Part shown: positions 4,776 through 56,939 of the stretch, piece by piece
How the letters are laid out: every line of letters begins with the position of its first letter
Position numbering within the stretch: the first letter of the stretch is position 1
Origin: Minisyncoccia bacterium
GTDB lineage: Bacteria; Patescibacteriota; Minisyncoccia; Phycocordibacterales; Phycocordibacteraceae
Length of the DNA: 64,000 bases
Reading direction: 5' to 3'
Assembly: GCA_041485695.1 (NCBI GenBank)
Contig: JBGPJZ010000002.1
Location: forward strand, 65,499 to 129,498
Notes under the pieces: generated by a model
Told to the model about the DNA's origin: nothing
The model's database searches: none
The model's input: only the letters and a program-made list of their open reading frames with translations
Translations under genes and position numbers: made by a program

Positions 4776-6722
4776 ATGAACACACCATCACCACGACCAG
4801 CACCGCCTCCGGGCCAGGGTCCGCGACCGTTTACGCCTCATCCAGGAAGCGAGCGAGGACCACGGCCCTATGGCCCGGGAAGAGAGGGCGACCGCCGCCA
4901 GGGCGGTCGACCCTATGGCGGTCGAGGCGGCGGGGGCCGCGGCGGAGGGCGACCGGGCGGCGTACGTCGCCGCATCGAGCGTATGCTCCGTCGGCCTACC
5001 GCAGCCCCTAGAAAGCCTCAGAGCGCCGATTACTACCCAGAGCCAGCAACCGGTAACACGGTACGCATCGTCCCTTTAGGCGGCATTGAGGAGGTGGGCC
5101 GCAATATGACCGCCGTTGAGGCCAACGGCGATATCCTCGTCTTTGACGCGGGCTTCCAATTCGTTTCTGAAGACGGATCCCCGGGTGTCGACTACATCCT
5201 CCCCAACACCAAATATCTTGAAAAAAACCAAGACCGCGTGCGCGGCGTCATCATCACGCACGGCCACCTCGACCACATCGGCGGCATCCCGTTCGTGCTC
5301 CCACGCTTCGGCAATCCTCCAATATACACGCTGGCTCTGACCGCAGTGATGATCGCGAAGCGTCAGGAGGAGTATCCCGATATCCCAAAGCCTGAAATCA
5401 TCACGGTCGAAGTCGGCCAATCGATGACGATTGGCCATACCAAGGTCAAATTCTTTCCCGTTACGCACTCTATCCCCGACTCAATGGGCGTCTCCCTAGA
5501 GACTCCGCAAGGAAACGTCGTCATCACCGGCGACTTGAAGCTTGACCACGATGACGGTATCCCCTCAGAGAAAGAGAAGAGGGTGTGGGGCGAGATTGGT
5601 AAAGACAAGAATCTCTTTTTCATTGCGGACTCCACAAACGCAGAGAAAGACGGCTTCTCTATCCCTGAAAAGCGCGTGATTCAGACACTCGAGGACATTG
5701 TGCGCACCGTGAATGGTCGGCTCATTATCGGCACCTTCGCCTCACAATTTGAAAGGATGGTGAAGATCATCGAAATTGCAGAAAAACTCGGCAAGAAAAT
5801 CGTGACCGAAGGACGCTCTATCCGCACCAATCTCGAGATTGCCGAGAAAATGAACCTTTTGAAAATCGACAAAGGCACCATCATCCCCTCACAGGCGATT
5901 GGCGACTACCCTCCTGATAAAATCGTAATCCTCTCAACGGGTGCGCAGGGTGAAGAGTTTGCGGCCTTGATGCGCATCGCGACCAAGCAGCATAAGACCA
6001 TCTTCCTCAATGAACGCGACACCATCGTCCTCTCTTCATCCGTCATCCCGGGGAACGAGCTCAACGTGCAGAAGCTGAAAGACAATCTCTACCGCCAGGG
6101 AGTGACGCTTATCCACTACCGGTCAAGCGACGTGCACTCGACCGGCCACGGCAATACAGGCGAACTCGTATGGATCAACAAACAGGTTCATGCCAAGTAC
6201 TTCATGCCTGCCTATGGCTACCGCTCAATGACCTTCTGCCATGCAAAAGCCGTCGAGCAGAGCGGCTTCCCAAAGGAGAACATCATCTTGGCTGATAATG
6301 GCACCGTCATCGACATCGAAGACGGCGAGAAGCTGAACGTGCACAAGCAAAAAGTCCCTTCGACCCAGATGGTGGTCGATGGATTTTCGATTGGCGATAT
6401 GCAAGAGGTCGTGATACGCGACCGGCAGATGCTCGCCAAAGACGGTATGTTCGTGATTATCGCCTCGATCAATATCAAGACCGGAAAGCTCCGTAAGTCG
6501 CCTGACATCATCTCGCGCGGCTTCATTTACCTCCGCGAATCCCAAGACTTGCTTAACCAAGCACGGCTCCTCATCAAGAAAACCGTCGAGGACTCAACCC
6601 GCAACATGAACCCCATTGACCTTGACTACGTTAAAAACAACCTTGCTGACGTGATGACGGGCTTCCTCTTCACCCGTACGAACAAAGCCCCGATGGTCAT
6701 CCCTGTGCTTATCGGGATGTAA
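4776..6722 (+). CDS. rnj: ribonuclease J (MBL / beta-CASP / RNA-binding) with ~100-aa RGG-rich N-terminal extension
   Basis: IVPLGGIEEVGRNMTAVE...ITHGHLDHIGG... plus beta-CASP and C-terminal domains. The first ~100 aa are Pro/Gly/Arg low complexity (GGRPYGGRGGGGRGGGRPGG). Confidence 0.85.
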   Translation: MNTPSPRPAPPPGQGPRPFTPHPGSERGPRPYGPGREGDRRQGGRPYGGRGGGGRGGGRPGGVRRRIERMLRRPTAAPRKPQSADYYPEPATGNTVRIVPLGGIEEVGRNMTAVEANGDILVFDAGFQFVSEDGSPGVDYILPNTKYLEKNQDRVRGVIITHGHLDHIGGIPFVLPRFGNPPIYTLALTAVMIAKRQEEYPDIPKPEIITVEVGQSMTIGHTKVKFFPVTHSIPDSMGVSLETPQGNVVITGDLKLDHDDGIPSEKEKRVWGEIGKDKNLFFIADSTNAEKDGFSIPEKRVIQTLEDIVRTVNGRLIIGTFASQFERMVKIIEIAEKLGKKIVTEGRSIRTNLEIAEKMNLLKIDKGTIIPSQAIGDYPPDKIVILSTGAQGEEFAALMRIATKQHKTIFLNERDTIVLSSSVIPGNELNVQKLKDNLYRQGVTLIHYRSSDVHSTGHGNTGELVWINKQVHAKYFMPAYGYRSMTFCHAKAVEQSGFPKENIILADNGTVIDIEDGEKLNVHKQKVPSTQMVVDGFSIGDMQEVVIRDRQMLAKDGMFVIIASINIKTGKLRKSPDIISRGFIYLRESQDLLNQARLLIKKTVEDSTRNMNPIDLDYVKNNLADVMTGFLFTRTNKAPMVIPVLIGM

Positions 6723-6723
6723 G

Positions 6724-7644
6724 TTATCTTAAGGGTGTGCCGGAGGGTATCACGGGCATATCTTTGTACGAAGCAAATAAGTCCTCGAGGGAACGGACAG
6801 GTACTTCTGTATTCAGCGCCCGAGCCTTGGGCAGATTCCAGTACGGGACGCTGGTCCAGCGATGGTGTTCGAAGTGATACCAGGTATTGTGCGGAACAAA
6901 AACGAGTCGGTACAGGAACCGAGCATAAATGCGATGGACATCCGCCGTACCCATGTGTTCTGTCCAGATTCGTAGGCGAAAGACTGCCCAGAATGCCGAC
7001 CCCATAGCGGCAAACCAGATCAGTAAGATCCACCACATACTGAAGTGCCAGATGATAAAGAGCGCCACTACCCACCAGACAACCGGTACCAACTTATCTT
7101 TAATGGAGTCCCGCACTGCGATATAACTCAATACAAAAAACTCTTCTTCTACACCTCCAAAAAGAAACATATCCCCGAAGAAAAACCGTATGATGCGCGC
7201 TACTCTCGCAGGCAAGTCATAGTGCGGAGCGAGGTGTTTCTTGTGGTACAACTCTGGATCCTTTTCAGTTCCTAGATTTTCATGATGCGTAAAATGAAAC
7301 CGCCGATAACCGCTGATGCCGATGCCCATCGGCCAGAACACGAGCAATTCAGCAAGGAAATCATTGAGCCACAATTTACTGCTAATGTGCCCATGGGCCC
7401 CTTCATGCCCCAGAATGACAATGGAGTGTTGACGTGTGCCTGTTACGAATGTCGCGAGAATGGCAGTAATGATGAGAAAAATATCCCAGAGAGGAGCGTA
7501 ACCGCGGCTTTCCGTCAATTGAAAAACTTCATACACGGCTGCCATCGAAAGTCCGATGATTCCCCAGTCTATGAGAGCGGCAAGGAGCCACCGTGCGATG
7601 CTGGGGCGACTTATTGAGGCGGCTTCTGGCGCGGGAGGAGGCAT
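6724..7644 (-). CDS. membrane fatty-acid desaturase family protein (three His boxes)
   Basis: 306 aa with HEGAHG, HFTHH and HFEHH boxes and multiple TM segments. Codons are visibly AT-richer than neighbouring genes. Confidence 0.7.
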   Translation of the reverse strand: MPPPAPEAASISRPSIARWLLAALIDWGIIGLSMAAVYEVFQLTESRGYAPLWDIFLIITAILATFVTGTRQHSIVILGHEGAHGHISSKLWLNDFLAELLVFWPMGIGISGYRRFHFTHHENLGTEKDPELYHKKHLAPHYDLPARVARIIRFFFGDMFLFGGVEEEFFVLSYIAVRDSIKDKLVPVVWWVVALFIIWHFSMWWILLIWFAAMGSAFWAVFRLRIWTEHMGTADVHRIYARFLYRLVFVPHNTWYHFEHHRWTSVPYWNLPKARALNTEVPVRSLEDLFASYKDMPVIPSGTPLR

Positions 7645-7679
7645 GTTCTTGAAGCTTGGGTGATTTTATCATAGCAGCG

Positions 7680-8492
7680 TCAAGGGTGTACATCCATTGT
7701 CTCTTTGCGTTGTGCGACGATATTGCAGAACATGAAGATGTTATCTACGAAATGGGCTGGTTTGATTTTTATCCAGCCGCGAGGTAAGAGGCGGTAGAGT
7801 TCGTACTCGGGGAGTAGCTCTGACAAGCTGTGGAGCGTGTAGTTGCGGCGCAATTGGAGAATATTAAATTCAAATTGTATGAATCTCGGCTTGAATCGCT
7901 CGATTGTTTTGCGCGCACCTAACAGTACCTCGCGCTCATACCCTTCAGTATCTATCTTTATGAAATCAAGCTGTTTGAGTGAGAGCTCCTCGACGACATG
8001 ATCGACGGTAGTGACAGGGACCTCTTCTCCCCTAACTCCTATCGGCATCAAATTTTTATCGAGTGTGGCGGTAGCGGCTCGCTCTCCTCTTGAGAAGAGA
8101 GTCGCGGCGCCGTTAAAATCTGCTACCGCAGTTCGGAGCGCGACGACCCTCCCGGCATTCTCGGCCTCGACTTTCTGTAATTCTACAAACGAAGAGGTGG
8201 AGGGCTCAAAAGCATAAACGATGCAGTTTAAATGGCTGTGGAGCGCTTTCGTGTAATTGCCGACGTTCGCACCAATGTCTAAGCAGGTACGTATGCCTGC
8301 AGGTTTCAAGACAGACTTTATAAACCATTCTTCACCGGTAAACCTGGGCTGCTTGTACGCGTTATCGTACCCGAGCCCGTGGAGCGAAAGATTGATGAGC
8401 GCGTGATGAAACCCCTGCATAGACGGCCGGCCGCATACTCTCGCATAATAGTTCGCCGCTATCCACGCGTAGTGCTTCAGCCGCTTTTTCAT
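7680..8492 (-). CDS. FkbM-family SAM-dependent methyltransferase
   Basis: 270 aa. DIGANVGNYT ... AFEP ... IKIDTEGYE motifs of Methyltransf_21/FkbM. Start overlaps the mutY-like stop (ATGA). Confidence 0.75.
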   Translation of the reverse strand: MKKRLKHYAWIAANYYARVCGRPSMQGFHHALINLSLHGLGYDNAYKQPRFTGEEWFIKSVLKPAGIRTCLDIGANVGNYTKALHSHLNCIVYAFEPSTSSFVELQKVEAENAGRVVALRTAVADFNGAATLFSRGERAATATLDKNLMPIGVRGEEVPVTTVDHVVEELSLKQLDFIKIDTEGYEREVLLGARKTIERFKPRFIQFEFNILQLRRNYTLHSLSELLPEYELYRLLPRGWIKIKPAHFVDNIFMFCNIVAQRKETMDVHP

Positions 8493-9313
8493 GAGAGCAC
8501 ACTACCACGCGGTAACTGGAAACGGTTACCGCGTTTTTGTATGAGATGCTCGGAGAGAAGTGCGGAAAGGGCCGCGCGGAGCTGCGCGCGGCGAGAGAGG
8601 CCGAGGAGATTCGCAAGAGATGCGGACGTGCGCCCGCCCCCGACAAGCGCACGGAGGATCGCCCCACGCGCTTCGCGATTAGAACCAGCAAACTTCGATT
8701 GTTTGACGTAATGTTTGCTTTTTGTGTTTAGTTTTATGCCCGACTGCTTTAAGTACGCGCCGTAGTCCATCAAGGCCGAGTACCACTTCCTCGCCTCCCT
8801 TTTTGGGAGTACCTGCTCAAGGATTTTTGTAATCTGCACGTCGGAAATGTCCTTCGTATCGCCAAAAAAGTGGTGCAGAACTGCCGTCCGGATATTCGTT
8901 TCGATAAAAATGCAATCTTTGTTGAAGGCGAAAGCCACGACAGCGCGCGCTGTATAGGGACCCACGCCATCGAGCGCTTCCCATTGTTCGACGGTTCTCG
9001 GGAACGAGCCTCGATAATGCCCGACAATCTCTTGCACAGCGTGATGCAGGTTACGGGCTCTGCGATTGTAGCCGAGGCCTTGCCACACTTTGAGCACGCT
9101 TGAAAGAGGTGCTACTGCCAAACGTTCGACCGTGGAAAATTTCTCTAGAAATCGCCAATAAAACGGGATGACGCGTTCCACCTGTGTTTGCTGGAGCATT
9201 ACTTCAGATACTAAAATTCTGTATGGATCTTTAGTTTTACGCCACGGCAGATCATGCCGCCCGTGTTTTTTATAATGCACCCACACTATCTTTCTAAAAT
9301 CTGTATACAACAC
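8489..9313 (-). CDS. HhH-GPD DNA glycosylase, MutY catalytic domain fused to a C-terminal winged-helix; no [4Fe-4S] motif, no NUDIX domain
   Basis: 274 aa. LPWRKTKDPYRILVSEVMLQQTQVERV and ALMDYGA match the MutY N-domain, but there is only one Cys. The C-terminal ~70 aa are wHTH-like. GTG start with a GAGGTAGGA SD. Confidence 0.65.
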   Translation of the reverse strand: MLYTDFRKIVWVHYKKHGRHDLPWRKTKDPYRILVSEVMLQQTQVERVIPFYWRFLEKFSTVERLAVAPLSSVLKVWQGLGYNRRARNLHHAVQEIVGHYRGSFPRTVEQWEALDGVGPYTARAVVAFAFNKDCIFIETNIRTAVLHHFFGDTKDISDVQITKILEQVLPKREARKWYSALMDYGAYLKQSGIKLNTKSKHYVKQSKFAGSNREARGAILRALVGGGRTSASLANLLGLSRRAQLRAALSALLSEHLIQKRGNRFQLPRGSVLS

Positions 9314-9336
9314 GTCCGTATCCTACCTCTGCTGGT

Positions 9337-9370
9337 ATAAAAAGAAAAAGAGCACCACAAGTGGTGCTCG
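9337..9370 (-). terminator. intrinsic terminator (GAGCACCAC-AA-GTGGTGCUC + U-run) on minus strand
   Basis: Perfect 9-bp GC-rich stem followed by UUUUUCUUUUU on the minus strand, ~25 nt upstream of the mutY-like start. Confidence 0.6.
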
Positions 9371-9628
9371 AAGGAGGGAAAGTTGCTGGACTGCATAGAG
9401 CCACGCGATCTTCGACTGAACCGCCCCCAGGGGTGGTCGTCACCTCATGCCGGTATTCGCTTGCGTATTCTAGACTACGCGCACTTGTTCTTTGGCATCC
9501 TGGAGCACCGCTTTGCGCAAAGCGATACTCCATCGAGAGTCGTACATTCTCTCGGGACACTTCTAACCCTTTCCGGTTTCAGCATTGGCCATTGATACCC
9601 GCGCCCAGGGCAACTCCAGCAACTGACC
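9371..9628 (-). ncRNA. candidate structured small RNA (~290 nt) between nth and mutY-like; family unassigned
   Basis: Bounded by a minus-strand TTGACA-17-TAGTAT promoter (9663..9635) and the terminator at 9337..9370. The 5' CAGUUGCUGGA pairs with the 3' UCCAGCAACU, and there is an internal 16-nt perfect palindrome CGCUUUGCGCAAAGCG. No convincing ORF. Confidence 0.3.
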
Positions 9629-9634
9629 CGCCCC

Positions 9635-9663
9635 TATACTATGCCTCTCGACACGAATGTCAA
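9635..9663 (-). promoter_or_regulatory. sigma70-like promoter, -35 TTGACA / 17 bp / -10 TAGTAT (minus strand)
   Basis: On the minus strand TTGACA is at 9663..9658 and TAGTAT at 9640..9635. The -35 overlaps the nth stop codon. Confidence 0.45.
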
Positions 9664-10358
9664 CTCGCCCTTGGCCAGCGTTTGTTGGCGGGCGGCCAGA
9701 GCTTAGTAAGAGGATGTGCGGAGCAGTCATGTGGGCGCGCTGGGCAGAGATAGCGGCCATAGAGGACGAGGCCATTATTCACATACTTCCAATCTTTCTT
9801 TGGTATCAGTGACTCAAGGTCTTTTGAGATCCTTTTGAGATCGCTTTGATCAGTCAAATCAAAGCGCTTCGCGAATCTTTTTACGTGGGTATCCGTAGGT
9901 ATCCCCTCCCACGTGTCATAAAGCTCACCTAAGACGACGTGTGCTGTTTTGTAGCCCACGCCAGGGAGCGCGACCAGCTCTGCTTCGGTACGTGGCACTT
10001 CCCCACCGTACTTTTCTTCAATAATCTTCGCGGCCCCTATCACCGCCTTGGCTTTATTACGGAAAAATGGGATTGAAGAGATTTCTTTCGTGAACACGGT
10101 AAGATTTGCCCGAGTAAAGTCTTTCGGTGTCTTGTATCGCTTAAAAAGCGAGTTCGTAAGTTTATTCACTGCTTTGTCAGTGCACTGCGCTGAAAAAACA
10201 ACTGCTGCAACAAACTGGAACGGCGTTTCATGCCTGAGCTCGCTCTTCGGGACGGGGTACGCACGTTTTAAATAGGAGAGAATCTTCTTAGCTCTTGCCC
10301 GGCGCTCTTTAGCTTTTGAGGGAGTCACTAGCACAGCATAAAGGAATGGCGGGCTCAT
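9660..10358 (-). CDS. nth: endonuclease III-like HhH-GPD glycosylase (degenerate Fe-S loop)
   Basis: 232 aa. ...FSAQCTDKAVNK...LVALPGVGYKTAHVVL...IPTDTHVKR.. is a typical Nth core. The C-terminal Cys cluster is reduced to C-x6-C only. Confidence 0.7.
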   Translation of the reverse strand: MSPPFLYAVLVTPSKAKERRARAKKILSYLKRAYPVPKSELRHETPFQFVAAVVFSAQCTDKAVNKLTNSLFKRYKTPKDFTRANLTVFTKEISSIPFFRNKAKAVIGAAKIIEEKYGGEVPRTEAELVALPGVGYKTAHVVLGELYDTWEGIPTDTHVKRFAKRFDLTDQSDLKRISKDLESLIPKKDWKYVNNGLVLYGRYLCPARPHDCSAHPLTKLWPPANKRWPRAS

Positions 10359-10657
10359 TCAAGAGCCCGCCTCTTCTTTCGCTTGACTCGCTTCGTAAGC
10401 GTCTCGCTAATCTCCTGCCGTACATAGACGCGAGCCCCTATCTGAATCTGAACATTGATGGCGTCGGCGACATTACTTACTAGTTCACGAATTTCCTTTC
10501 GCGCCCGACACCCATTCAACTGTCCGTTTTTTGCGCAACGGCGCCACGCGCCCAGTAGCTTTTTCTTATCTCTGCGAGTATACACATCCGCTGCCGCAAA
10601 AAGAGCACCGAGCGGGCGCGTGAGCCGCGTCCACGGTATATCAAACCGCTTGTCCAT
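10355..10657 (-). CDS. small basic hypothetical protein (~100 aa)
   Basis: ATG (MDKRFDIPW...) preceded by GGGGGAG. Stop overlaps the nth start (ATGA), suggesting translational coupling. Confidence 0.4.
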   Translation of the reverse strand: MDKRFDIPWTRLTRPLGALFAAADVYTRRDKKKLLGAWRRCAKNGQLNGCRARKEIRELVSNVADAINVQIQIGARVYVRQEISETLTKRVKRKKRRALE

Positions 10658-10687
10658 TTTCTCCCCCAAAAGAACCCTTCTATCGGA

Positions 10688-27908: not shown

Positions 27909-28123
27909 GAAAGTAATTAAAAATCCGCTTCCGCGGTCCCCTCTAACCTACAGGAAGCGCTGCCTGCCGTCAAATACCCTCCGATTTCAAATCGCCTCAT
28001 ATTTACTGGGCGATTTTAAAACCTTGACAGGTGGGCAAAATATTTCAATTCTCCTCACGGGCTTTTTCTTTATATAAAATCTGGTACTGTAGAGTGAGGA
28101 AATATTCATCAACGGGTGCGACG

Positions 28124-28552: not shown

Positions 28553-28559
28553 GCAAACG

Positions 28560-28602
28560 AAAGTCCCGGCAGATTACTGCCGGGACTTTTTGATTTCTAT
28601 TT
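28560..28602 (+). terminator. intrinsic terminator AGTCCCGGCAG-ATTA-CTGCCGGGACT + UUUUUGAUUUCUAUUUUUAUUU
   Basis: Perfect 11-bp stem plus a long U-tract on the plus strand, directly after the orphan ORF. Confidence 0.65.
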
Positions 28603-31938: not shown

Positions 31939-31975
31939 AGCAAATGCCCTCCGTTTGGACCTAAAACCTGCGTGG

Positions 31976-32004: not shown

Positions 32005-32011
32005 TAGTAAC

Positions 32012-40936: not shown

Positions 40937-40978
40937 AAATATAAGAACTATAGTATAGTATAGATCGAAACAGTACAA

Positions 40979-47186: not shown

Positions 47187-48311
47187 CTACTGGAGCGCGG
47201 CGATGCCGGGGAGGGTGCCTTTGGCGAGGAAGTCGAGCATTGCGCCGCCGCCGATAGAGATGAACGAGAAGCGGTCGAGTAGATTAATGCGCTCGAGTTC
47301 GGCAACAGTGTCACCGCCGCCGATTACTGAGTAGCTGCTGCTCCCGACAATTGCCTTAGCGACCGTGTCAGTCGTCTCAACATATCCTTTTTCGTACTCG
47401 CCTAAGGGGCCATTCCACAGTACTGCCTTAGACTTTTTCACCAAATCAACAAGGAGCGCCGCAGTACCGGGGCCGTGATCGAGCACCGCTTCATCGGGCG
47501 TAGCGCTGTCGATTGACCCGACTCTCGAACTCCCGTCACTTGTAACAAACCGCCCGTCGATAGGGAGCACGAGATGCGGGTGGGTAAGCAATGTCTTTAT
47601 CTCGTCTCCCGCAGCGTGCGACACCAGAGAGCGCCCGACTGGGTACCCCTTGGCCGCGATAAAGTCATTGGCGAGGGCTCCGCCCACGAAAACCTTGTCG
47701 TACGCCTCTAAGAGTTTCTTGACGACGGGCTCTTTAGTTGAGAATTTCGCGCCACCAATGATTGCGAGCGAAGGACGCAGGGGCGTGAGCGCTTTGGTAA
47801 GTTCGCGCACCTCCTCAAGGAGCTCCCAGCCAGCGTACGAGGGCAAGATGCGGGGAACGCGCATGATAGATGCGTGAGCGCGGTGGCACGTGTCAAATGA
47901 ATCCTGTACGAACACATCAGCCAGTTGAGCGAGTTCGTGCGCGAAAGCGAGGTCGTTGGCCGCCTCTCCTGGGTTACGCCGTAGATTTTCTAACACGAGG
48001 ATGTGGCCCGGGGAGAGCCCGCGAACCGCTTTGCGCGCGAGCTCTCCCGTATTCGCCTCACAAAATGAAACCCCATTGATCAGCTTCGAGAGAGCGTCGA
48101 CGACTGGCTTTAGGGTTTCAGTACCCGCTTCGCCGATATGGCTCGCGACGATGACGCGCGCGCCTTGTTCACTCAAATATTTAAGGGTCGGCAGCGCACG
48201 GCGTAGCCGATGATCATTGCGCACTATCCCTCCCTCAAGAGGAACGTTTAACGCCGCGCGAACGAGGACGGGAATGGTGTGGAGTACCGGTATCTCTTTA
48301 AATGAACGCAT
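47187..48311 (-). CDS. pgk: phosphoglycerate kinase
   Basis: 374 aa, ...PTLKYLSEQGARVIVASHIG... and C-terminal ...IGGGDTVA... motifs. Confidence 0.92.
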   Translation of the reverse strand: MRSFKEIPVLHTIPVLVRAALNVPLEGGIVRNDHRLRRALPTLKYLSEQGARVIVASHIGEAGTETLKPVVDALSKLINGVSFCEANTGELARKAVRGLSPGHILVLENLRRNPGEAANDLAFAHELAQLADVFVQDSFDTCHRAHASIMRVPRILPSYAGWELLEEVRELTKALTPLRPSLAIIGGAKFSTKEPVVKKLLEAYDKVFVGGALANDFIAAKGYPVGRSLVSHAAGDEIKTLLTHPHLVLPIDGRFVTSDGSSRVGSIDSATPDEAVLDHGPGTAALLVDLVKKSKAVLWNGPLGEYEKGYVETTDTVAKAIVGSSSYSVIGGGDTVAELERINLLDRFSFISIGGGAMLDFLAKGTLPGIAALQ

Positions 48312-48321
48312 GTGAGGCTGG

Positions 48322-49071
48322 TTATGCGAGCGCTTTTACGAGCGCTGAAAAAAGAGAGGGGTCAACCGAGGCGTGCCCGACCAAGAAACCGTCGACAGCC
48401 GAACCGCCGGCGAGCCCGCGGATATTCTCGGGCTCAACCGAGCCGCCGTAAATCACCGTCGTCTTTGCGGAGGCTTTCGCGGTCGAGAGCTCAGCGAGCA
48501 CCTTGCGGATATAGAGGGTCATTTCAGCAAGGTCGGTAACGCCGATAGCCTCAGCAGAGGTCTTACCGATCGCCCATACCGGCTCATACGCGATGATGAC
48601 TTTTGATTTTTCTTTGGGTTCTATCCCCTCAAGCGCCGAAACGATATCAGCGCGAACCTGCGCCAAGTAATGCCCCTCGGTGTCGCGCGCCTGCTCACCC
48701 ACGCACACGATGGGTATGAGGCCGTGTGCTATGGCATGGGCCACCTTCTGTGAAATCATCTCGCGAGTCTCACCGGCGGCTCGACGCTCGGAATGGCCGA
48801 TGATGGCGTAGGTTACGCCGAGCGAGGTGAACATAGGGGCGGTCACCTCCCCTGTGTGCGGGCCGCCAGCTGCAAGCGAGATGTCCTGGGCCGCAAACTC
48901 AATCTTTGACTTGTTTTTGGGCGCCAAAAGACCAATCTGCGGCGCCGGGGGTGCGAGCACTATCGTTACTTTGGTGGCAGCCGTGAGGCGCTTCGCGAGG
49001 GAAAAGAGCTTTTTAGCCTTCGCAGAGTCCTCCACATACGCCTTCCAATTCGCAATAACGATCATGAACAT
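48322..49071 (-). CDS. tpiA: triosephosphate isomerase
   Basis: ...IANWK...IIGHSERR...IIAYEPVWAIG... Confidence 0.92.
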   Translation of the reverse strand: MFMIVIANWKAYVEDSAKAKKLFSLAKRLTAATKVTIVLAPPAPQIGLLAPKNKSKIEFAAQDISLAAGGPHTGEVTAPMFTSLGVTYAIIGHSERRAAGETREMISQKVAHAIAHGLIPIVCVGEQARDTEGHYLAQVRADIVSALEGIEPKEKSKVIIAYEPVWAIGKTSAEAIGVTDLAEMTLYIRKVLAELSTAKASAKTTVIYGGSVEPENIRGLAGGSAVDGFLVGHASVDPSLFSALVKALA

Positions 49072-49124
49072 ATAATACCAGGTATAAAAACTAGGTCGTT
49101 GTCACTACGTAGTAGAATTGCATT

Positions 49125-50231
49125 ATGTATAAAGAGACCGTAGAAAGACAATTTAAGGCCGCAGATATTGAGATAAACGGCAAAAGGCCATGGGACATTC
49201 AAGTACATGATGAGAGATTCTATAAACGTTTATTCTTGCATCGCTCGCTCGGGTTAGGAGAGTCTTACATGGAAAAGTGGTGGGACTGTGAAAGGATCGA
49301 TCTGTTTATCGAGAAAGTGTCGCGTTCAATCGGAAATAATAAAATAACCATATCCTTTGCGATGTTATGGATTAAAGCCCGTCTTTTTAACTTGCAGTCA
49401 CCACAGGGCGCACGCAAAGTTATTGAGGAGCATTATGACCTCAGCAACGATTTGTACATGTCCTTTCTCGACCGCTATAACCAGTACACCTGCGGATTTT
49501 TCCAAGAGACTACCGACCTCAACAAAGCACAGGAGCAGAAACTAGAACTCATTTGTAAGAAGCTGCATTTAAAACGGGAAGACCGCGTTCTCGATATCGG
49601 GTGCGGGTGGGGTGGTTTCGCTAAATACGCAGCAGAGCACTACGGATGTCGTGTGGTAGGAATTACCATCTCTGATGCACAGCTTGCCTACGCACAAAAA
49701 GACACGGATGGACTACCTGTGGAAATACGCAAACAAGATTACAGGGACTTATCAGGCGAGGAGTTCGACAAAATCGTTATCATCGGGATGATTGAACACG
49801 TTGGTTATAAGAATTATGAGAAACTATTAAAGACAGTAGCAGGGTGTTTGGCCGACGACGGGCTTTTTCTTCTTCATACCATCGGAAGGAACGACAGCGC
49901 GTCTACCGGTGAACCTTGGTCACATAAATACATCTTCCCGAACGGGATGCTTCCCTCTATCAAACAAATCGGAGAAGCGAGCGAAGACGTCTTTGTCATG
50001 GAAGACTGGCATAACTTTGGTCCTTATTATGTCGATACGCTTCTTGCTTGGGACGCAAACTTCCAGAAGAACTGGCTCCAGATAAAAAAGGATTACTCAG
50101 AAACGTTCTTTAGGATGTTTAGATATTATTTCAATAGTTTTGCAGGCGCTTTCAGGGCACGCCATATCCAATTGTGGCAAGTAGTTTTTAGCAAAGGAGT
50201 AACCAATAGGGTTTACGAGCGTGTACGCTAA
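49125..50231 (+). CDS. cfa: cyclopropane-fatty-acyl-phospholipid synthase family methyltransferase (CMAS)
   Basis: ...HYDLSNDLYMSFLDRYNQYTCGFF...LDIGCGWGGFAKYAAEHYG... CMAS signature. Gene is visibly AT-rich (roughly 40-45% GC) against ~60% flanks. Confidence 0.85.
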   Translation: MYKETVERQFKAADIEINGKRPWDIQVHDERFYKRLFLHRSLGLGESYMEKWWDCERIDLFIEKVSRSIGNNKITISFAMLWIKARLFNLQSPQGARKVIEEHYDLSNDLYMSFLDRYNQYTCGFFQETTDLNKAQEQKLELICKKLHLKREDRVLDIGCGWGGFAKYAAEHYGCRVVGITISDAQLAYAQKDTDGLPVEIRKQDYRDLSGEEFDKIVIIGMIEHVGYKNYEKLLKTVAGCLADDGLFLLHTIGRNDSASTGEPWSHKYIFPNGMLPSIKQIGEASEDVFVMEDWHNFGPYYVDTLLAWDANFQKNWLQIKKDYSETFFRMFRYYFNSFAGAFRARHIQLWQVVFSKGVTNRVYERVR

Positions 50232-50232
50232 A

Positions 50233-51663
50233 TTATTGCTCGCGCCAATCGACGAACTGGTACTGGGTCGAGGTAATCGGGGTAAATACGGGCGGATTCG
50301 TTGAATTTTGCCGGTCGAACGTCGTAGTGCGCGTCGGGTACCCCGAATGTTTCCCATTGCCGCAGCCGTAGCCCGAATACGTCCAATACGTGCCGGGCTT
50401 TAAGTTCGACACGATAGTACCGAGGATGGTTAGGGTGTTTTTGTTTGCATACGCAGCGTTCGCACAGGTGTACATATTCATACCGAAGGCGCCTGATTGC
50501 GAGATGAAGATGCCATCAAGCGTAAGGTTCGATGGTGCGTCCGGAGCAATGAGGACATCTCCTTGCGATACGAGCGTGAACCCGGCGCTCCCGTCAAAAA
50601 CGGAGTATACGATGTTGTTTTTAAGGAGCGTGTAGGGGACAACTCCAGCGTGCGCAACATCAGCGACCGCGAGCGTTACCTTGCCGCTTATCGTTCCCTC
50701 AACCCAGGTGTGATCCTCGACATAGATAAGCGGGCAGCCTGAAGGGATGGCGTAGGTGCCGTCCAAGACTTCATTCTGGATAAGCGTGTATTCGGTCTGG
50801 AGCCCGGCGCCCGGGTTACTGACCGGAACGGCCGAGACCGTATTCTCGCTACCCACCCTGTAAACAGTGACGGTTCCGTTCGAATTAAAAATAAGGTGAT
50901 AGCCCTTGAAATAGGCATTGCCGCCGTTACCCGAGCTGGTGCGGGCGAAATAGAGCCCTGTTGCTTGTGCCGTCGTCTTGAGCGCAGAGAAGTCTGCTGA
51001 AATCGCCCCGAAGTCTGTCTGGGGCGTCGGGTACTGCCACAAGCTCTGATCGACACCCGCGCCGAAAACCCCGGGCTTCACTGCAGAAGGAGCGCAGCCG
51101 AAATTCGCATCGCAGGTCCAGGTCGCGAGAGAGCTCGTTACCGGCGACGTCGAGGTGCCGTCCATGCGGATACCGCCGTTTGAATGAAAGGGGCCGAAGA
51201 GGGTCGAACCGACCCATACGCTTGAATTGACGATAAAAGAGTACTGCGCCACTGAAGGCTGCGCATAGCGCGCCCAGAGCGTTTTCGAAACCGTGGGAGC
51301 GTCGCTTGGCACGCCCTTCGAGGTCACATCGATTGAACTCTTCTGCCCGCACGCTGCGTTGCCTGTGATGGAGAGCGTGTAGGTACCGGCGGCACCCCCT
51401 TGCGGGTCAAGGTAGGAAACTTGGTATGGCCCAGGCTGGCCGGTACCGTTCTGCGTGTCACCCGGGAAGTGGGAAAGGAACCAGCGGTAATACTCAAGGC
51501 CCGCTTCAGAAATAGCGAATGATTCCTGTTTCTGCCGCTGCAGCTCCTCTGCGCGATTTTCGAGTAAAACGTACCCTGAAATGGCGGTAAGAACCGAAAA
51601 AAAGATCGCCCCGAATACAAGCACAAGGAGGAGTATCGAGCCCCGTCGGCGGATAGTTTTCAT
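50233..51663 (-). CDS. large pilus-associated protein with PilX-like N-terminal anchor
   Basis: MKTIRRRGSILLLVLVFGAIFFSVL... N-terminal hydrophobic helix, then Gly/Ser/Thr-rich beta-rich domain. Last gene of the pilus operon, overlapping the upstream pilin stop. Confidence 0.4.
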   Translation of the reverse strand: MKTIRRRGSILLLVLVFGAIFFSVLTAISGYVLLENRAEELQRQKQESFAISEAGLEYYRWFLSHFPGDTQNGTGQPGPYQVSYLDPQGGAAGTYTLSITGNAACGQKSSIDVTSKGVPSDAPTVSKTLWARYAQPSVAQYSFIVNSSVWVGSTLFGPFHSNGGIRMDGTSTSPVTSSLATWTCDANFGCAPSAVKPGVFGAGVDQSLWQYPTPQTDFGAISADFSALKTTAQATGLYFARTSSGNGGNAYFKGYHLIFNSNGTVTVYRVGSENTVSAVPVSNPGAGLQTEYTLIQNEVLDGTYAIPSGCPLIYVEDHTWVEGTISGKVTLAVADVAHAGVVPYTLLKNNIVYSVFDGSAGFTLVSQGDVLIAPDAPSNLTLDGIFISQSGAFGMNMYTCANAAYANKNTLTILGTIVSNLKPGTYWTYSGYGCGNGKHSGYPTRTTTFDRQNSTNPPVFTPITSTQYQFVDWREQ

Positions 51664-52256
51664 TTTTGAGTTGAAAGGTTGCGCAAGGTCGCACCGGCAG
51701 AGAGCGTATACACGGTCGGTGCGCGGGTCGGGTTCACGTCGGTGAGGACCGTCAATTTGACCGAAATGATGGAAGGGATGACCGGAGCCGCCCCGAGAGC
51801 GGTCCCGTTGCTATCATAGTACGTGAACAGCGGCGTCGACGTACCATTACGTATGTTATCAACCACGAGAGTCACGACCTCTGGTTGCCCAGCATACGAA
51901 GGGGGGTTGCCAATCGGCTCGGTTACTCCGCGATAGAAGGTGAACCCTGAAAGGTAGTAGCGGACTTTCTCAAGTACCGACGTACCGGATATGTCAGAGT
52001 AAAAAGTGATGGTCGAGGTGGCTGCAGCGGCAATCGGATAGGAGCCATCAGCAGCATACGAGGCCTCGCGCAGGTTAGAGACGGCGTTTTGAATACTGCG
52101 GCGCGCGCTCTCAACCGCCTGGGTCTGCTCCAGCGTGTAGGCATTCGTTTGATAGAAATATTGAATCAAGAATCCCACTGCGAGCATGACGACCACCGAG
52201 ATAGTCATTGTTACCAGCATCTCAATGAGCGTAAAACCGCGAGGGAGGTAGGCCAT
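51660..52256 (-). CDS. type IV minor pilin / pseudopilin (prepilin-type N-terminal methylation motif)
   Basis: MAYLPRGFTLIEMLVTMTISVVVMLAVG... is the class III signal peptide G|FTLIEML. Confidence 0.8.
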   Translation of the reverse strand: MAYLPRGFTLIEMLVTMTISVVVMLAVGFLIQYFYQTNAYTLEQTQAVESARRSIQNAVSNLREASYAADGSYPIAAAATSTITFYSDISGTSVLEKVRYYLSGFTFYRGVTEPIGNPPSYAGQPEVVTLVVDNIRNGTSTPLFTYYDSNGTALGAAPVIPSIISVKLTVLTDVNPTRAPTVYTLSAGATLRNLSTQK

Positions 52257-52260
52257 ACGA

Positions 52261-53964
52261 TTAGGGAAAAGCAGCCTCGAATGTCGTCAGTCCTCCCACG
52301 GCAACGCCCGGGAACTGCGTCGTGGTGTATCCCGCCTTTGATATCGTAACGGTATAGGTGTTGGCAGAGATGTTGCCGAAATACGCATTGCCGCACGCAG
52401 AGCTCACGACGCTTGCAGAAAATCCTGCTCGAGTAAGGTCGACTGTAGCACCACTGACTGCGAGCCCTCCTGAATCGACGACCGAGATAAAGAGCGAATT
52501 CGTTGTGGCGGCGCCAAGCACGAGAGAGGCGGCAAGCGACTCTCCAGCTGCAAGGGTATACGGGGGCGTGGGGCACGTATCGACGATATCGTAACCTGGC
52601 ACCGAGAGAGCGTACCCGTCCCGTTCAAGAGGGGCTGCCACCTGCGCGCCCGCTCCTGTTGTCGTATTCACCACTGTCTTGTAAATGGGCGCCCCGCCGG
52701 CGGTCGAACCAATCGTCTTAGTGCCTGTAAGCATAAACGATACATTCGCTAAAGGAGCGGGGCCCGCAAGCGCAGAGATTGACCAGCCAAGGATGGAAGG
52801 GGCTGTCGTGGTAGCGGTCGAAAGCAGGGCTCCTATCGCAAGCGAGGGATAGGTCGAGGTTGAAATAGTTGAGAGATTGATGGGGAAAGTCATGAATCCG
52901 ACTGAATTGCCAGGGAGTACCGCGTCAGGGAGAAGCGCTCCAGAGCCGTCGTAGATTTGAATAGCTGCAGACGTATCGGTCGTGGTCGAAAGCGCTGACG
53001 AGACGCTCTCCCACCTCGAAAGGTACTGCGGAGCGAACGCGATGGAGCGAACGTTCCCGTTCACCTCCCCTGGGTTAAGAGTAAGCGTCCCGCCTGAAAC
53101 AATGACGCTTGAAGAAGCTGCGATGTTTGAACCGTTCGCAAACGTATCCGCGAACGTCGTAGTTGCAGGGGGTGAAAAGGTCGAAAGCGTCAGCACTCCC
53201 ATGAGGTCAATCGCAAAGGTCCCCGTTGTCGTTTGATCTTTTGAAATAGTGAGTAATCCGGGAGTCGGGTTCGCATTCTGTGCATCTACCGGGTAGGTCT
53301 GAGCCGAGGAGCAGCCGCTCTTGCTCACGTACACTTGGTACTCTGACGACGTCGCGGCACCCGGCAAGTAGACGATGCCGCTCATGTTGCTAAAGGTGGT
53401 GAGGTCAACGGGGGGCGACGTGCTTGTATTTATGATGTGGACGGTGGCGCCCGAGAGGCAAGCGCCAGCCGGGTCGACCACCTTGACCTGGAGCGTCCCA
53501 CCGCCCGTTGAACTTTCGATGGTGGGCGGTACGAAATTCGAAATGAACGCGATGCTTTTAGCGATCCCTGCGATCACATATGAGACTGAAACCTTAGCGA
53601 CTTTGTAGTCAGTCGTGATGCCAGTCTGATCTAAGGCGCCCGTGCCATCAGCAGGGTCATCGACGTATTCAATGAACGTGTGCGTTACGAAATCCACGCC
53701 GCTCACGGTCGTCGTTGCGACCTGCGGTATCAGCCCTGCAGGAATGCCACCCACGGTGCCCAAGGAGTCGTAGGCGAGGCCGCGCAAGTATTCCACTTGG
53801 CTCTGCGCAACAGAGCTTGCAGAGGCACTGGCCTTGCCCACGATTGAAAGGATGATTGAAACGCGCAGGAGCCCGAGGAGGGCAAGAAACAGCGCCAGGA
53901 AGATTGCGATACCCACGATGGTCTCGATAAGACCGAATCCCCGCGCATGGTGCGAGGTTGGCAT
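52261..53964 (-). CDS. large type IV pilin (567 aa) with prepilin N-terminus and CarboxypepD_reg-like Ig domains
   Basis: ...HHARG|FGLIETIVGIAIFLAL... prepilin motif; long Thr/Ser/Gly-rich extracellular region with ...SGATVHIINTS...YQVYVSKSG... domain repeats. Confidence 0.75.
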   Translation of the reverse strand: MPTSHHARGFGLIETIVGIAIFLALFLALLGLLRVSIILSIVGKASASASSVAQSQVEYLRGLAYDSLGTVGGIPAGLIPQVATTTVSGVDFVTHTFIEYVDDPADGTGALDQTGITTDYKVAKVSVSYVIAGIAKSIAFISNFVPPTIESSTGGGTLQVKVVDPAGACLSGATVHIINTSTSPPVDLTTFSNMSGIVYLPGAATSSEYQVYVSKSGCSSAQTYPVDAQNANPTPGLLTISKDQTTTGTFAIDLMGVLTLSTFSPPATTTFADTFANGSNIAASSSVIVSGGTLTLNPGEVNGNVRSIAFAPQYLSRWESVSSALSTTTDTSAAIQIYDGSGALLPDAVLPGNSVGFMTFPINLSTISTSTYPSLAIGALLSTATTTAPSILGWSISALAGPAPLANVSFMLTGTKTIGSTAGGAPIYKTVVNTTTGAGAQVAAPLERDGYALSVPGYDIVDTCPTPPYTLAAGESLAASLVLGAATTNSLFISVVDSGGLAVSGATVDLTRAGFSASVVSSACGNAYFGNISANTYTVTISKAGYTTTQFPGVAVGGLTTFEAAFP

Positions 53965-53967
53965 AGG

Positions 53968-55179
53968 CTAGAATGCTGACGAAAGCGAGTAGATTGGCGC
54001 AATCATCGCGACGGCGAAGACACCTACCATGCCTCCGATGAAAAGCATCAAGACCGGCTCGATGATCGTCGAGAGATCCTTCGTCTTTTGCGAGACGTCG
54101 CCCTCGTAAAACTCTGCCACCTGGAGGAGCATCTCGGCAAGCTTGCCGGTTTCCTCTCCCACGGCGACCATATCGCTCATCATGAGCGGATAGAGCTTGG
54201 GGTGCTCGATAAACGCGGCTGAAAGAGGGTCGCCCTTCTTGACCCTCAAGGCTGCCTCACCTAGCACCTTCGCGAACAGGGGCGCTCCCACGACCTCTTC
54301 GGTTATTGAAAGGGCACTCAGCACGGGCACGCCCGCCGAGAGAAGCGAGGCAAGGGTGCGCGAGGCGCGCGCCGCGAATGTTTCGCGGACAAGCTCTCCC
54401 ACGACTGGCGCATAGAGCGCGATGCGCAATACCACGGCACGACCTACTGGAGAACGTACGAAGGCGAGACCTCCAACGACGAGGAGGACGAGAGAGCCGA
54501 TGACTACATAGGTATGATTCACCATGAAGTTTGAGACGGCGACAATGATCTGCGTCGCAAGCGGTAACTTGACCCGAAGCTGTGAGAAGGTCGCCGTCAA
54601 GGTTGGCACGACATAGATGAGCATGAGGACAGCGACGATCACGATGGCGCCCATGACGATTGAAGGGTAGATCATCGCTCCCTTTATCTTGCGCGAGAGA
54701 TCTTCGGCTCGCTCCATCTGCGTGCTCACGACCGTGAGCGCTTGCGCGAGCCCTCCCGACTCTTCGCCAGCTTTGACCATGGCGATAAAGAGCTTTGAGA
54801 ACACCTTGGGGTGCTCTCCGAGCGCCTCGTGGAGCGTCGACCCTTTAGTGATCGTCGCCGAGACATGCGCCGCTATCTCTCGCAGATGCCTGTTGCGGGA
54901 CTGCCGTTCGAGTATTGAGAGCGCCCGAGAGAGGGAGAGGCCAGCCGTGAGCATCGCCGAGAGGTTTTTCGACATCGTAATGATCTCTTGGCGCTTCACT
55001 CCCGTGCCAATCACGAGATTGAGACGCTGTGGGAGCCTTAATCCACCGCCTTCGGCTATCGAAACCACCGAACCTCCCTCTTTTTGCACGAGGTCATACA
55101 CCGCGAAGCGCGACTCTGCCTCGACGAAGCGTTCTTCGTTGGTTGCCCCTCCTTTTTTTATGGTGACGCGGAATTTCAT
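53968..55179 (-). CDS. pilC: type IV pilus assembly platform protein PilC (two T2SSF domains)
   Basis: 403 aa with duplicated GspF-like domains and 3 TM segments. Confidence 0.85.
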   Translation of the reverse strand: MKFRVTIKKGGATNEERFVEAESRFAVYDLVQKEGGSVVSIAEGGGLRLPQRLNLVIGTGVKRQEIITMSKNLSAMLTAGLSLSRALSILERQSRNRHLREIAAHVSATITKGSTLHEALGEHPKVFSKLFIAMVKAGEESGGLAQALTVVSTQMERAEDLSRKIKGAMIYPSIVMGAIVIVAVLMLIYVVPTLTATFSQLRVKLPLATQIIVAVSNFMVNHTYVVIGSLVLLVVGGLAFVRSPVGRAVVLRIALYAPVVGELVRETFAARASRTLASLLSAGVPVLSALSITEEVVGAPLFAKVLGEAALRVKKGDPLSAAFIEHPKLYPLMMSDMVAVGEETGKLAEMLLQVAEFYEGDVSQKTKDLSTIIEPVLMLFIGGMVGVFAVAMIAPIYSLSSAF

Positions 55180-55181
55180 AC

Positions 55182-56939
55182 CTATTCGGTGACGGCGCGG
55201 AGCACCTCCTCGAGCGAGGTGAGGCCGCGCGCAGCTTTATAGATGCCGTCGTCAAGCATGGTGAGCATCCCCTCTTGCTTAGCCTGATTTTCGATTGCTT
55301 CAGAGGTGCCTTTTTGCAAAATGACTTCGCGTATGGCCGAGGAGACAGAGAGAACCTCGTGGATACCGATACGGCTCTTGTAGCCATCCTCGCTATCACC
55401 CGAAGGAACAGGCTTATAAAACGGGAGCGAGTCGACGGTCACCGTGTCTTTTACCAGTTTCTCATCCTTGAGGGCCTTCAAGGCTGCTGCGAAATTTTCT
55501 TCGTTCGTGACCTTCGACTGCTCGACCTTCCCGAGCTTGTACTCTTCTTTGCTATCAGTAAGGCGTCGCACCAAGCGCTGGCCGATGATGACCTTCAAGG
55601 TCGAGACGAGGAGAAACGGCTCGACACCCATGTCCATGAGGCGCGGTATGGCGCCCGCGGCGCTGTTCGTGTGTATCGTCGAGAGCACGAGGTGACCGGT
55701 CAAGGCTGCGTTAATCGCAAGCGACGCCGTCTCGCCATCGCGAATCTCGCCTACCATGATGATGTCCGGGTCTTGGCGCACCAGGGAGCGTAGCCCGTTC
55801 GCGAAGGTGAAGCCTATTTGCGGGGCGACCTGCGTCTGGTTAACGCGCTTCATCTGGTACTCGATAGGGTCTTCAATCGTCGAAATATTCACATCGGGCG
55901 TGTTTAAAATGTCGAGCATGGTGTACAGGGTTGTCGTCTTGCCGGAGCCTGTTGGCCCTGAAGCAAGGATGATGCCGGTTGTCTGTTTCATGGCGCTGTG
56001 GATGCGCTCCAAATTTTCACCATGAAAGCCGAGTGACTCGAGCGTAAAGCCCTCTCCCGTCCCCGTCTCCCGTAGAAGGCGCATAACGATTTTCTCCCCA
56101 AAGAAGGTCGGGAGTATCGAGACGCGGAACGACACCTTATCGACCTCGGTTTCCATCTTAAAGCGACCGTCTTGCGGGAGACGCTTTTCATCGAGCTTCA
56201 AGTTCGACAAGACTTTTATGCGCGCAACAAGCCCGGGCGCAGCCGCCTTAGGCAAGGTCATCGCGTCGTGGAGGATGCCATCGATACGGTAGCGCACTAG
56301 CACTTCAGCCTCCATGGGCTCGATATGAACGTCGGATGCGTCTTGGACAATCGCGTGGCGGAGGAGGGTGTCGACGATGCGCACAATCGGCAAATCTTCA
56401 GCCAGCTTCTTCAAATCCTCGCCCGAGACATCTGCGTCGGCTTTGATGAGCTTCAGTTTGCCCGCTTCAGTCGAAATAATGTCGCCGAACTCGTCTTTGA
56501 GCGACTTCTGGTATTGCAAGAGCGCATGCTTAATCGAATCAGTGTCGGTGAGGCGCGACAATATCTTAAGCCCGGTCTTCTTCCGAACGGACTCGATAGA
56601 TTGCAAATCCTCGACGTCGAGCATCGCGACCTCCAAGGAGTCGCCCTCCTTCTTAAACGCGATGATATTGTGCGTGCGGGCTATAGGCTCGGGGATAAGA
56701 GCGAGGACGTCTATGGGGACCTTCTCTCCTTTGAGGTTTACGAAAGGGATGCCGAGCACGTAGGCTTGGATACGGCGCAGGGCGTCTTCGGTTATCGCGC
56801 CGCTCGAAACCAAAATATCGCCCAGAGGCTGTCCGCGCTTTTTACCTTCTTCAGCGGCGGCATCGACGTCTTTCCTCGAGACCAGTCCGGAGTCGACGAT
56901 GAAATCCTTGAGCTCGCTCTCTGAAACATGCATATACAA
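55182..56939 (-). CDS. pilB: type IV pilus assembly ATPase PilB (GspE family)
   Basis: 585 aa. N-terminal GspII_E domain, Walker A GPTGSGKTTT, Asp and His boxes. Confidence 0.9.
   Translation of the reverse strand: MYMHVSESELKDFIVDSGLVSRKDVDAAAEEGKKRGQPLGDILVSSGAITEDALRRIQAYVLGIPFVNLKGEKVPIDVLALIPEPIARTHNIIAFKKEGDSLEVAMLDVEDLQSIESVRKKTGLKILSRLTDTDSIKHALLQYQKSLKDEFGDIISTEAGKLKLIKADADVSGEDLKKLAEDLPIVRIVDTLLRHAIVQDASDVHIEPMEAEVLVRYRIDGILHDAMTLPKAAAPGLVARIKVLSNLKLDEKRLPQDGRFKMETEVDKVSFRVSILPTFFGEKIVMRLLRETGTGEGFTLESLGFHGENLERIHSAMKQTTGIILASGPTGSGKTTTLYTMLDILNTPDVNISTIEDPIEYQMKRVNQTQVAPQIGFTFANGLRSLVRQDPDIIMVGEIRDGETASLAINAALTGHLVLSTIHTNSAAGAIPRLMDMGVEPFLLVSTLKVIIGQRLVRRLTDSKEEYKLGKVEQSKVTNEENFAAALKALKDEKLVKDTVTVDSLPFYKPVPSGDSEDGYKSRIGIHEVLSVSSAIREVILQKGTSEAIENQAKQEGMLTMLDDGIYKAARGLTSLEEVLRAVTE

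Follow-up and report, generated by a model that had tools for sequence, protein, structure and literature searches.

Two putative accessory loci in a Candidatus Kaiserbacteria genome: a very likely laterally acquired cfa gene and a desaturase-methyltransferase pair in a variable slot

The window analysed here, a 64-kb stretch of contig JBGPJZ010000002.1 (assembly GCA_041485695.1), harbours three genes that a sequence-only reading had singled out as AT-rich and horizontally acquired, and had proposed to modify lipids in a reduced bacterium of the candidate phyla radiation (CPR). Two of them are adjacent on the minus strand and code for a membrane desaturase-family protein (hereafter des; positions 6724..7644) and an FkbM-family methyltransferase (fkbM; 7680..8492). 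The third, on the plus strand, codes for a cyclopropane-fatty-acyl-phospholipid synthase (cfa; 49125..50231). Pfam and NCBIfam scores confirmed that all three genes are present at these positions and belong to the families proposed.

The cfa product, of 368 residues, is a complete and apparently functional Cfa of the Escherichia coli type, as judged from its sequence features. It matches the PF02353 (CMAS) signature with 272.6 bits (E 4e-81) and reaches 545.2 bits against the NCBIfam Cfa equivalog NF008686, whose cutoff is 400, in agreement with the identity first proposed. Residues 11-362 align to residues 26-378 of E. coli Cfa (PDB 6bqc; E 1e-117), corresponding to the full-length two-domain architecture. 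In this alignment, C123, E224, H251, I253 and Y302 coincide with the bicarbonate/active-site residues C139, E239, H266, I268 and Y317 of the E. coli enzyme, respectively. Across 22 Cfa homologues C123, E224, I253 and Y302 are invariant and H251 almost so, and the S-adenosylmethionine (SAM) motif VLDIGCGWGG is conserved. The gene is flanked, as had been described, by glycolytic and pilus genes on the opposite strand. To the left are pgk and tpiA (47187..49071, minus strand; G+C contents (GC) of 0.577 and 0.581), divergent from cfa and identified from their open reading frames (ORFs) and translations, PGK also being named by its sources. To the right, a convergent type IV pilus block (50233..56939, minus strand) encodes PilB, PilC and pilin-like proteins with T2SSE, T2SSF and N_methyl domains; direct reading of the junction showed that the stop codon of cfa is 1 bp from that of the neighbouring pilus gene. 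In the AT-rich spacer upstream of cfa, a consensus scan picked up a promoter-like pattern, TTCGCA-16-TATAAT (49049..49076, plus strand; 10/12 matches), which we report simply as a pattern match.

The des product is a 306-residue protein of the membrane di-iron desaturase/hydroxylase family (PF00487, 96.3 bits for a cutoff of 29.7). It harbours three His boxes, HEGAH (HX3H), HFTHH (HX2HH) and HFEHH (HX2HH), plus a conserved E229-H230 pair, and 31 homologues all retain H80, H84, H117, H120, H121, E229, H230, H257, H260 and H261. Its AlphaFold2 model, with a predicted local distance difference test (pLDDT) score of 95.1, has two long helical hairpins (residues 16-46/51-83 and 181-200/205-229) and the four-helix membrane di-iron fold. 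A Foldseek search with this model retrieved FtAlkB as well as a subunit of the chloroplast FtsHi motor complex (8xks_K, 8xqw_M). Close homologues are scarce, with 172 representatives among 1.84 billion at E<=1e-30, and the best of the 38 word-indexed homologues shares 57% identity with the protein. The only named relatives are from Rhizomicrobium (52%) and from the soil environmental DNA clone CSLC2 (49%). By its sequence, the protein thus belongs to a rare, uncharacterised subfamily. The earlier description of a three-His-box membrane protein was accurate; the lipid-desaturase assignment that went with it is not supported, since the protein stays below all equivalog cutoffs (scores are given further on). 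The prediction that it uses O2 to desaturate or hydroxylate a hydrophobic substrate is well supported, and a membrane acyl chain is a plausible but unproven substrate. One homologue at 51% identity (L217, positions 400-1992) directly precedes the gene of an alternative oxidase (PF01786), also a membrane di-iron protein.

The 270-residue fkbM product scores above the cutoffs of both PF05050 (72.4 bits, cutoff 22.7) and TIGR01444 (88.2 bits, cutoff 37.7), and it matches only such generic family models. Searches with this protein gave no PDB sequence match and no viral match, and its closest plasmid-borne homologues share 30-34% identity with it. Des homologues are never paired with FkbM genes. 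A lipid role for this methyltransferase, as implied by its designation as a lipid-modification enzyme, is thus unsupported, the evidence pointing neither way.

The source organism, a tiny groundwater bacterium of host-dependent lifestyle, is assigned by its sequence to the CPR, namely to Candidatus Kaiserbacteria (Paceibacteria). The best matches of its SecY protein (gene at 20428-21702) are 86-88% identical to it, and the named ones among them, at 86%, come from Candidatus Kaiserbacteria RIFCSP genomes. All SecY matches carrying a taxon name are CPR members (Kaiserbacteria, Patescibacteria, Minisyncoccota, Paceibacterota and Pacebacteria), two others being labelled merely 'bacterium'. With 55.8%, the window has a GC close to the ~56% usual in Kaiserbacteria, whose reference genome names contain '55' or '56'. 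The ribosomal region is ordered EF-G, EF-Tu, S10, L3 ... S5, L15, SecY, adk, map, ndk. The uL30 gene is missing from the spc operon, in which S5 (22180-22791) is followed 5 bp on by L15 (21695-22174). Only 4 of 55 genes are preceded by a Shine-Dalgarno core, and the window encodes ComEC together with PilB, PilC and pilins. The CPR-like host, the lack of L30, the paucity of Shine-Dalgarno starts and the combination of pili with ComEC, all anticipated from the letters of the window, were therefore borne out. Among the annotated ORFs in these 64 kb, none was recognised as a gene for lipid synthesis.

In its base composition, cfa stands apart from the rest of the window. The 60 genes that we curated have a mean GC of 0.561 (standard deviation (SD) 0.036) and a mean GC at third codon positions (GC3) of 0.653 (SD 0.064). 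The values for cfa, 0.442 (z -3.3) and 0.499 (z -2.4), respectively, are the lowest of this set, and its codon-usage deviation is the highest among window genes of at least 200 codons. The 10-kb flanks have a GC of 0.571, and the figure of 40-45% previously put forward for cfa is correct. The change is abrupt on both sides: at position 49051 GC drops from 0.54 to 0.38, and at position 50251 it rises from 0.41 to 0.57, which delimits the cfa ORF plus a 53-bp upstream spacer. From the amino acid sequence of Cfa and the synonymous codon usage of the window we calculated an expected GC of 0.508, leaving a residual of -0.067 (z -2.6). Approximately half of the GC deficit is therefore accounted for by protein composition and half by synonymous sites.

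We also compared the GC of cfa genes with that of their flanks in 74 genomes of many phyla, collected by scanning genome contigs with a cfa alignment; the matches listed are mostly from outside the CPR and at most 59% identical to the window Cfa. In this sample, the GC of cfa closely follows that of its surroundings (slope 0.88, r 0.96, mean difference 0.002, residual SD 0.027). From this trend the window gene deviates by 4.5 residual SD towards lower GC (z -4.5). The deviation is in the same direction, at 2.5-3.2 SD, for the four nearest relatives sampled, whose gene GC values are 0.42-0.46 for flanks of 0.49-0.55. The hosts of these four genes include one named Kaiserbacteria and one Paceibacterota. 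We considered that cfa might be AT-rich purely as a consequence of the protein that it encodes, and rejected this idea because cfa has the GC of its host in the 74 other genomes.

Of the 120 best matches of the window Cfa, which are 56-74% identical to it, 14 carry an organism name, and 12 of those belong to Patescibacteria (Paceibacterota, Kaiserbacteria, Pacebacteria, Peregrinibacteria and Parcubacteria). The other two are from a Pacearchaeota archaeon and a Lewinellaceae bacterium. The nearest relatives, at 67-74% identity, are proteins of other CPR bacteria. In a neighbour-joining tree that included 40 genomes of other phyla, the window Cfa fell inside a CPR-dominated group in 100 of 100 bootstraps, with the branching inside this group left unresolved. 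As this tree is distance-based and its top matches were picked by their similarity to the query, its informative part is their taxonomic labels. The genomic neighbours of cfa differ in every relative examined. By a rough comparison, there are ~15 Cfa clusters at >=65% identity for more than 120 SecY clusters at >=75%, which suggests that the distribution of cfa is patchy. The gene is thus compositionally foreign, and, taken together, composition, clade labels and shifting context make its lateral acquisition very likely. Because its nearest relatives are from CPR bacteria, each in its own context and each low in GC for its host, the data point to a recurrent CPR accessory gene exchanged within the CPR gene pool, rather than to an import from outside.

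Several observations on other cfa genes deserve mention in their own right. Two contigs (L173, positions 8846-11179, and L174, positions 1-2334) carry identical cfa genes, whose product is 73% identical to that of the window. They are 100% identical across 2334 bp and diverge completely 27 bp past the cfa stop codon, indicating either recombination at this point or a chimeric assembly. Another cfa (P0101) bears the label Candidatus Pacearchaeota and is hence assigned to a DPANN archaeon. It is placed in that half of the tree where CPR sequences dominate, which reflects either gene sharing between CPR and DPANN or a binning error. A Kaiserbacteria contig with a related cfa (L087, positions 1-2214; GCA_028286865.1) also carries the haem-copper oxidase genes COX1, COX3 and COX4 and UbiA, which indicates an oxygen-exposed lifestyle in this group. 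Homologues are found on viral contigs, including metagenome-assembled genomes of giant viruses (IMG/VR, L179-L207), the best at 53% identity and most at 31-42%. In our viral scans no close viral copies were identified for any of the three genes (cfa at most 53% identity, des at most 36%, fkbM without match), and there is therefore no support for a phage vector, all the viral homologues being distant. Tblastn searches of plasmids with the window proteins yielded matches of 23-34% identity only, the best record being unannotated.

The des-fkbM pair has a different setting. It is inserted between the genes for RNase J (4776..6722, plus strand; Pfam RNase_J_b_CASP and RNase_J_C) and for a MutY-like HhH-GPD glycosylase (8489..9313, minus strand; 204 bits against TIGR01084 mutY, under its cutoff), the latter being preceded by the gene for endonuclease III (Nth; 9660..10358, minus strand; 204 bits against TIGR01083). 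The stop codon of the RNase J gene is 1 bp from that of des, as read directly at the junction, des and fkbM are 35 bp apart on the same strand, and the end of the MutY-like gene and the start of fkbM overlap by 4 bp (ATGA). The overlap behind the translational coupling that had been proposed for the latter two genes is thus real, and des and fkbM are probably co-transcribed with the MutY-like gene.

To compare this region with that of related genomes, we scanned metagenomes with RNase J, which yielded 80 loci with RNase J proteins 75-93% identical to that of the window, many of them from Hainich and Rifle-type groundwater, and we searched them by tblastn with the window proteins. They share a conserved backbone in the order SBP5, RNase J (plus), slot, MutY-like (minus), Nth (minus; 67-85% identity in relatives), membrane protein (minus) and VKOR (minus). 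The MutY-like gene is present at 56-66% identity in 48 of the 80 loci, leaving out three matches of 24-27% that lie inside the Nth gene, and is itself missing from some related loci. Homologues of des and fkbM were found in none of the 80 loci, 48 of which span the slot. The slot, equivalent to positions 6723-8488 of the window, ranges from 13 bp to 6.1 kb (loci L093-L172). In 32 loci it holds a gene for a transporter of the major facilitator superfamily (MFS) of ~390 residues, a gene absent from the window. Its other contents include a P-type ATPase with a cytochrome b, a guanylate-kinase-like protein, a pilin, a DUF5667 protein and hypothetical proteins. The des-fkbM arrangement was found again in four independent assemblies of the same population. 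Judging from gene order in the relatives, des-fkbM is thus lineage-specific cargo in a hypervariable slot, and the site downstream of RNase J is a useful marker for gene flux in Kaiserbacteria.

It is the absence of the pair from all 80 syntenic loci, not its GC, that identifies it as cargo. With GC values of 0.505 for des and 0.501 for fkbM (z about -1.5 to -1.6), these genes are no lower than the MutY-like (0.515), Nth (0.499), PPase (0.486) and response regulator (0.503) genes, or than map, and the whole stretch from 5.4 to 10.6 kb is at ~0.50-0.53 without a step. Of the three genes that were held to be AT-richer than their neighbours, this leaves cfa alone, des and fkbM having the GC of the conserved genes next to them. 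Likewise, the proposal of horizontal acquisition holds in a modified form: cfa is compositionally foreign, its likely donor pool is the CPR itself, and des-fkbM is recognised as cargo by synteny.

We therefore favour, as the probable reading of these data, a Kaiserbacteria genome with two independent accessory loci, one with a laterally acquired, apparently functional cfa and the other with the des-fkbM pair as slot cargo. A number of results weigh against it. On the side of cfa, protein divergence within its subclade amounts to 26-33%, although every member is still low in GC for its host. A single old acquisition should have ameliorated, and one has to invoke either a constraint specific to the gene or several recent transfers that took place separately and whose donors are unsampled. 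Records of the identical Cfa protein come solely from the NCBI contig, whereas Joint Genome Institute (JGI) assemblies of the same population also contain des, fkbM and pgk. It may be that cfa varies within this population, or that the JGI assemblies are too fragmented. Neither locus is marked by an integrase or flanking repeats, no tRNA gene was found in the window, and an Rfam scan of the window gave no match. On the side of des-fkbM, base composition gives no signal of a foreign origin. The des product reaches none of the NCBIfam equivalog models, with 57 bits against GntB (cutoff 380), 28.5 against DesB (cutoff 500) and 16 against CrtW (cutoff 350), a PDB sequence search returned no match, and the contexts of des homologues consist of unrelated neighbours, with no conserved neighbourhood and FkbM never adjacent.

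The low GC of cfa might also be explained without transfer, if the gene were vertically inherited within Paceibacteria and owed its composition to gene-specific causes such as AT-rich amino acids, weak expression or relaxed codon adaptation. That its nearest named relatives are Kaiserbacteria and Paceibacterota is in keeping with this idea, as is the contribution of the protein sequence to the deficit (expected GC of 0.508 against a gene mean of 0.561), and a stable property of the gene would account more easily than non-ameliorated recent imports for five subclade members remaining low in GC at 26-33% protein divergence. However, the 74 other genomes reveal no intrinsic AT bias of cfa (mean gene-minus-flank difference of 0.002, SD 0.03), the residual at synonymous sites still amounts to z -2.6, the context changes in every relative, and the cluster counts, rough as they are, suggest patchiness; we consider vertical inheritance rather unlikely. 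Far less credible still is that the cfa segment results from chimeric assembly or binning. The restriction of the exact protein to the NCBI contig would fit such an artefact, and the abrupt end of identity between L173 and L174, 27 bp past the stop codon of a related cfa, shows that breakpoints beside cfa do occur in assemblies. Nevertheless, the low-GC segment corresponds to one intact ORF with its 53-bp spacer, its flanks are equal in GC and its stop codon is 1 bp from that of its neighbour, whereas chimeras join contigs rather than insert whole genes; moreover, the four relatives with low GC come from independent assemblies.

For des-fkbM, the question is one of function as much as of origin. 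The proposal that all three genes form a lipid-modifying package, taken from donors outside the CPR for remodelling scavenged membranes, finds an echo in the named des relatives, Rhizomicrobium and CSLC2, which are all non-CPR, in the foreign composition of cfa, and in the reported horizontal transfer of acpP and a lysophospholipase into Paceibacteria (PMC12455944). It is already partly refuted for cfa by the CPR-dominated clade of the latter. In addition, the two loci are 40 kb apart and differ in their signatures, no lipid role has been demonstrated for FkbM, the desaturase is below the cutoff of every lipid-desaturase equivalog, and GC fails to separate des and fkbM from backbone genes, which makes this package quite improbable. 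A role unrelated to lipids, in which a hydroxylase and an O-methyltransferase would act on an amino acid, a glycan or a small metabolite, is doubtful but has the better chances of the two. Members of the FkbM family O-methylate macrolides and sugars. The best NCBIfam similarity of des is to GntB, a hydroxylase of free L-arginine, ahead of DesB (28 bits), and the close spacing of the two genes on one strand is also in favour of this reading. Yet all these scores are so far under the family cutoffs that they inform at the superfamily level only, the four-helix membrane di-iron fold is common to acyl-lipid desaturases and AlkB, and des homologues occur without an FkbM neighbour, so that the pairing may be incidental.

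Returning to the reading with two independent accessory loci, we propose that cfa came by lateral transfer from some member of the CPR gene pool with a lower GC, the direction and timing of the transfer being inferred, and that related copies landed in several mid- to high-GC Paceibacteria-like genomes, each at its own site. The des-fkbM pair would be a two-gene cargo between the genes for RNase J and for the MutY-like and Nth proteins, where related Kaiserbacteria carry other cargo or none. According to reviews, Patescibacteria have no identified route for taking up or processing lipids (PMC11665869), and lipidomics data indicate that their cells appear to recycle host lipids (PMC7242380); the membrane would thus hold phospholipids with cis-unsaturated chains that are presumably host-derived (PMC7242380, PMC11665869). 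By homology, Cfa would bind the bilayer and transfer a methylene group from SAM onto the cis double bonds of phospholipid acyl chains, forming cyclopropane rings. As Cfa acts on phospholipids that are already in the membrane, the cell would need no fatty-acid synthesis of its own, which suits a lipid scavenger. In model bacteria, cyclopropanation lowers membrane permeability and protects against acid and oxidative stress. If the desaturase acts on acyl lipids, it could, with O2 and an electron donor, make double bonds for Cfa, a functional link that is speculative. Remodelling of scavenged lipids may be the physiological role of these activities. A bolder scenario, to which we attribute a small chance, is that a low-GC pool of cfa alleles circulates among ultra-small episymbionts (CPR, plus DPANN if the Pacearchaeota label is correct) and would be retained because it allows cells unable to make fatty acids to harden host-derived unsaturated phospholipids or lysolipids, with des-fkbM possibly representing a new module of hydroxylase or desaturase plus methyltransferase that decorates scavenged lipids.

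The supply and upkeep of membranes in Patescibacteria are an open question, and Cfa is among the few lipid enzymes that use finished phospholipids. A recurrent, laterally shared CPR cfa leads to a testable prediction, namely that cyclopropane fatty acids should be found in the lipids of the ultra-small cell fraction. The present data do not define a novel type of system, but they are a useful starting point for asking how bacteria that scavenge lipids might adjust membranes obtained from others.

Away from these loci, the window has other unusual features. The S10-spc operon had been described as shortened; we found that the S10 operon spans S10 to L15 unshortened, with two insertions. One is a gene for a Bac_transf sugar transferase (PF02397, E 1e-55; 31354-32043, minus strand) located between rpsJ (S10) and rplC (L3). 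What looks like the second is a gap of ~700 bp between rplB (L2) and rpsS (S19) (27909-28602), which contains an opposite-strand ORF of 143 codons without Pfam match (28121-28552, plus strand) followed by a GC-rich hairpin and a T-run. ComEC is seemingly split, its Competence/DUF4131 and metallo-beta-lactamase parts being encoded in separate ORFs (40073-41212 and 42061-43554, minus strand) ~850 bp apart, with small unannotated ORFs in between. The N-terminus of RNase J is extended by ~100 residues, among which Gly, Arg and Pro are abundant (4776-5075, local GC of 0.75), and the ribosomal protein S5 has an RGG-rich N-terminus that resembles it (GC of 0.657 for its gene).

The components of both loci can be related to known systems. 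The fkbM product is above both cutoffs of the family of FkbM, the 31-O-methyltransferase of FK506, and differs from it in its setting, with no polyketide or glycan cluster around its gene, and in the low identity of its closest plasmid homologues. With acyl-lipid desaturases, AlkB and GntB (PF00487), the des product has in common the three His boxes, the additional Glu-His pair, the four-helix fold and a structural likeness to FtAlkB, but it belongs to no characterised orthologous group, lacks a PDB sequence match and represents a small subfamily. For cfa, our literature search found no paper discussing this gene in CPR bacteria, while public annotations name it in many CPR genomes. Two parallels come from other ultra-small organisms. 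The horizontal acquisition of acpP and a lysophospholipase by Paceibacteria, with Pseudomonadota as the donor (PMC12455944), similarly brought lipid functions to ultra-small groundwater Patescibacteria. The donor was outside the CPR in that case, whereas the window cfa belongs to a CPR-dominated clade, and the process was lipid breakdown rather than modification. The other is cited in PMC11481508 and PMC11868695, which refer to Zhang et al. 2024 for cfa genes in Woesearchaeota, DPANN archaea of oxygen-deficient zones. As far as these citing accounts go, this is likewise a bacterial enzyme modifying the membrane lipids of an ultra-small organism that depends on a host and whose lipid synthesis is incomplete; the window host is bacterial, and the Woesearchaeota sequence that we sampled (L009) falls in the other half of the tree.

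The closest counterpart is E. coli Cfa itself (6bqc; NF008686), with which the window protein shares the full-length two-domain organisation, the SAM motif, the five bicarbonate/active-site residues and a score above the equivalog cutoff. It differs in that its host is a CPR bacterium, a presumed lipid scavenger, and that its gene is strongly depleted in GC for this host. In E. coli, cfa is under sigma-S-dependent stationary-phase control, a regulation that should not be assumed for the window gene. The window cfa is thus, by its sequence, a regular member of the E. coli-type family, and what it offers is not a new mechanism but a useful comparative pattern of persistently low GC and shifting genomic context.

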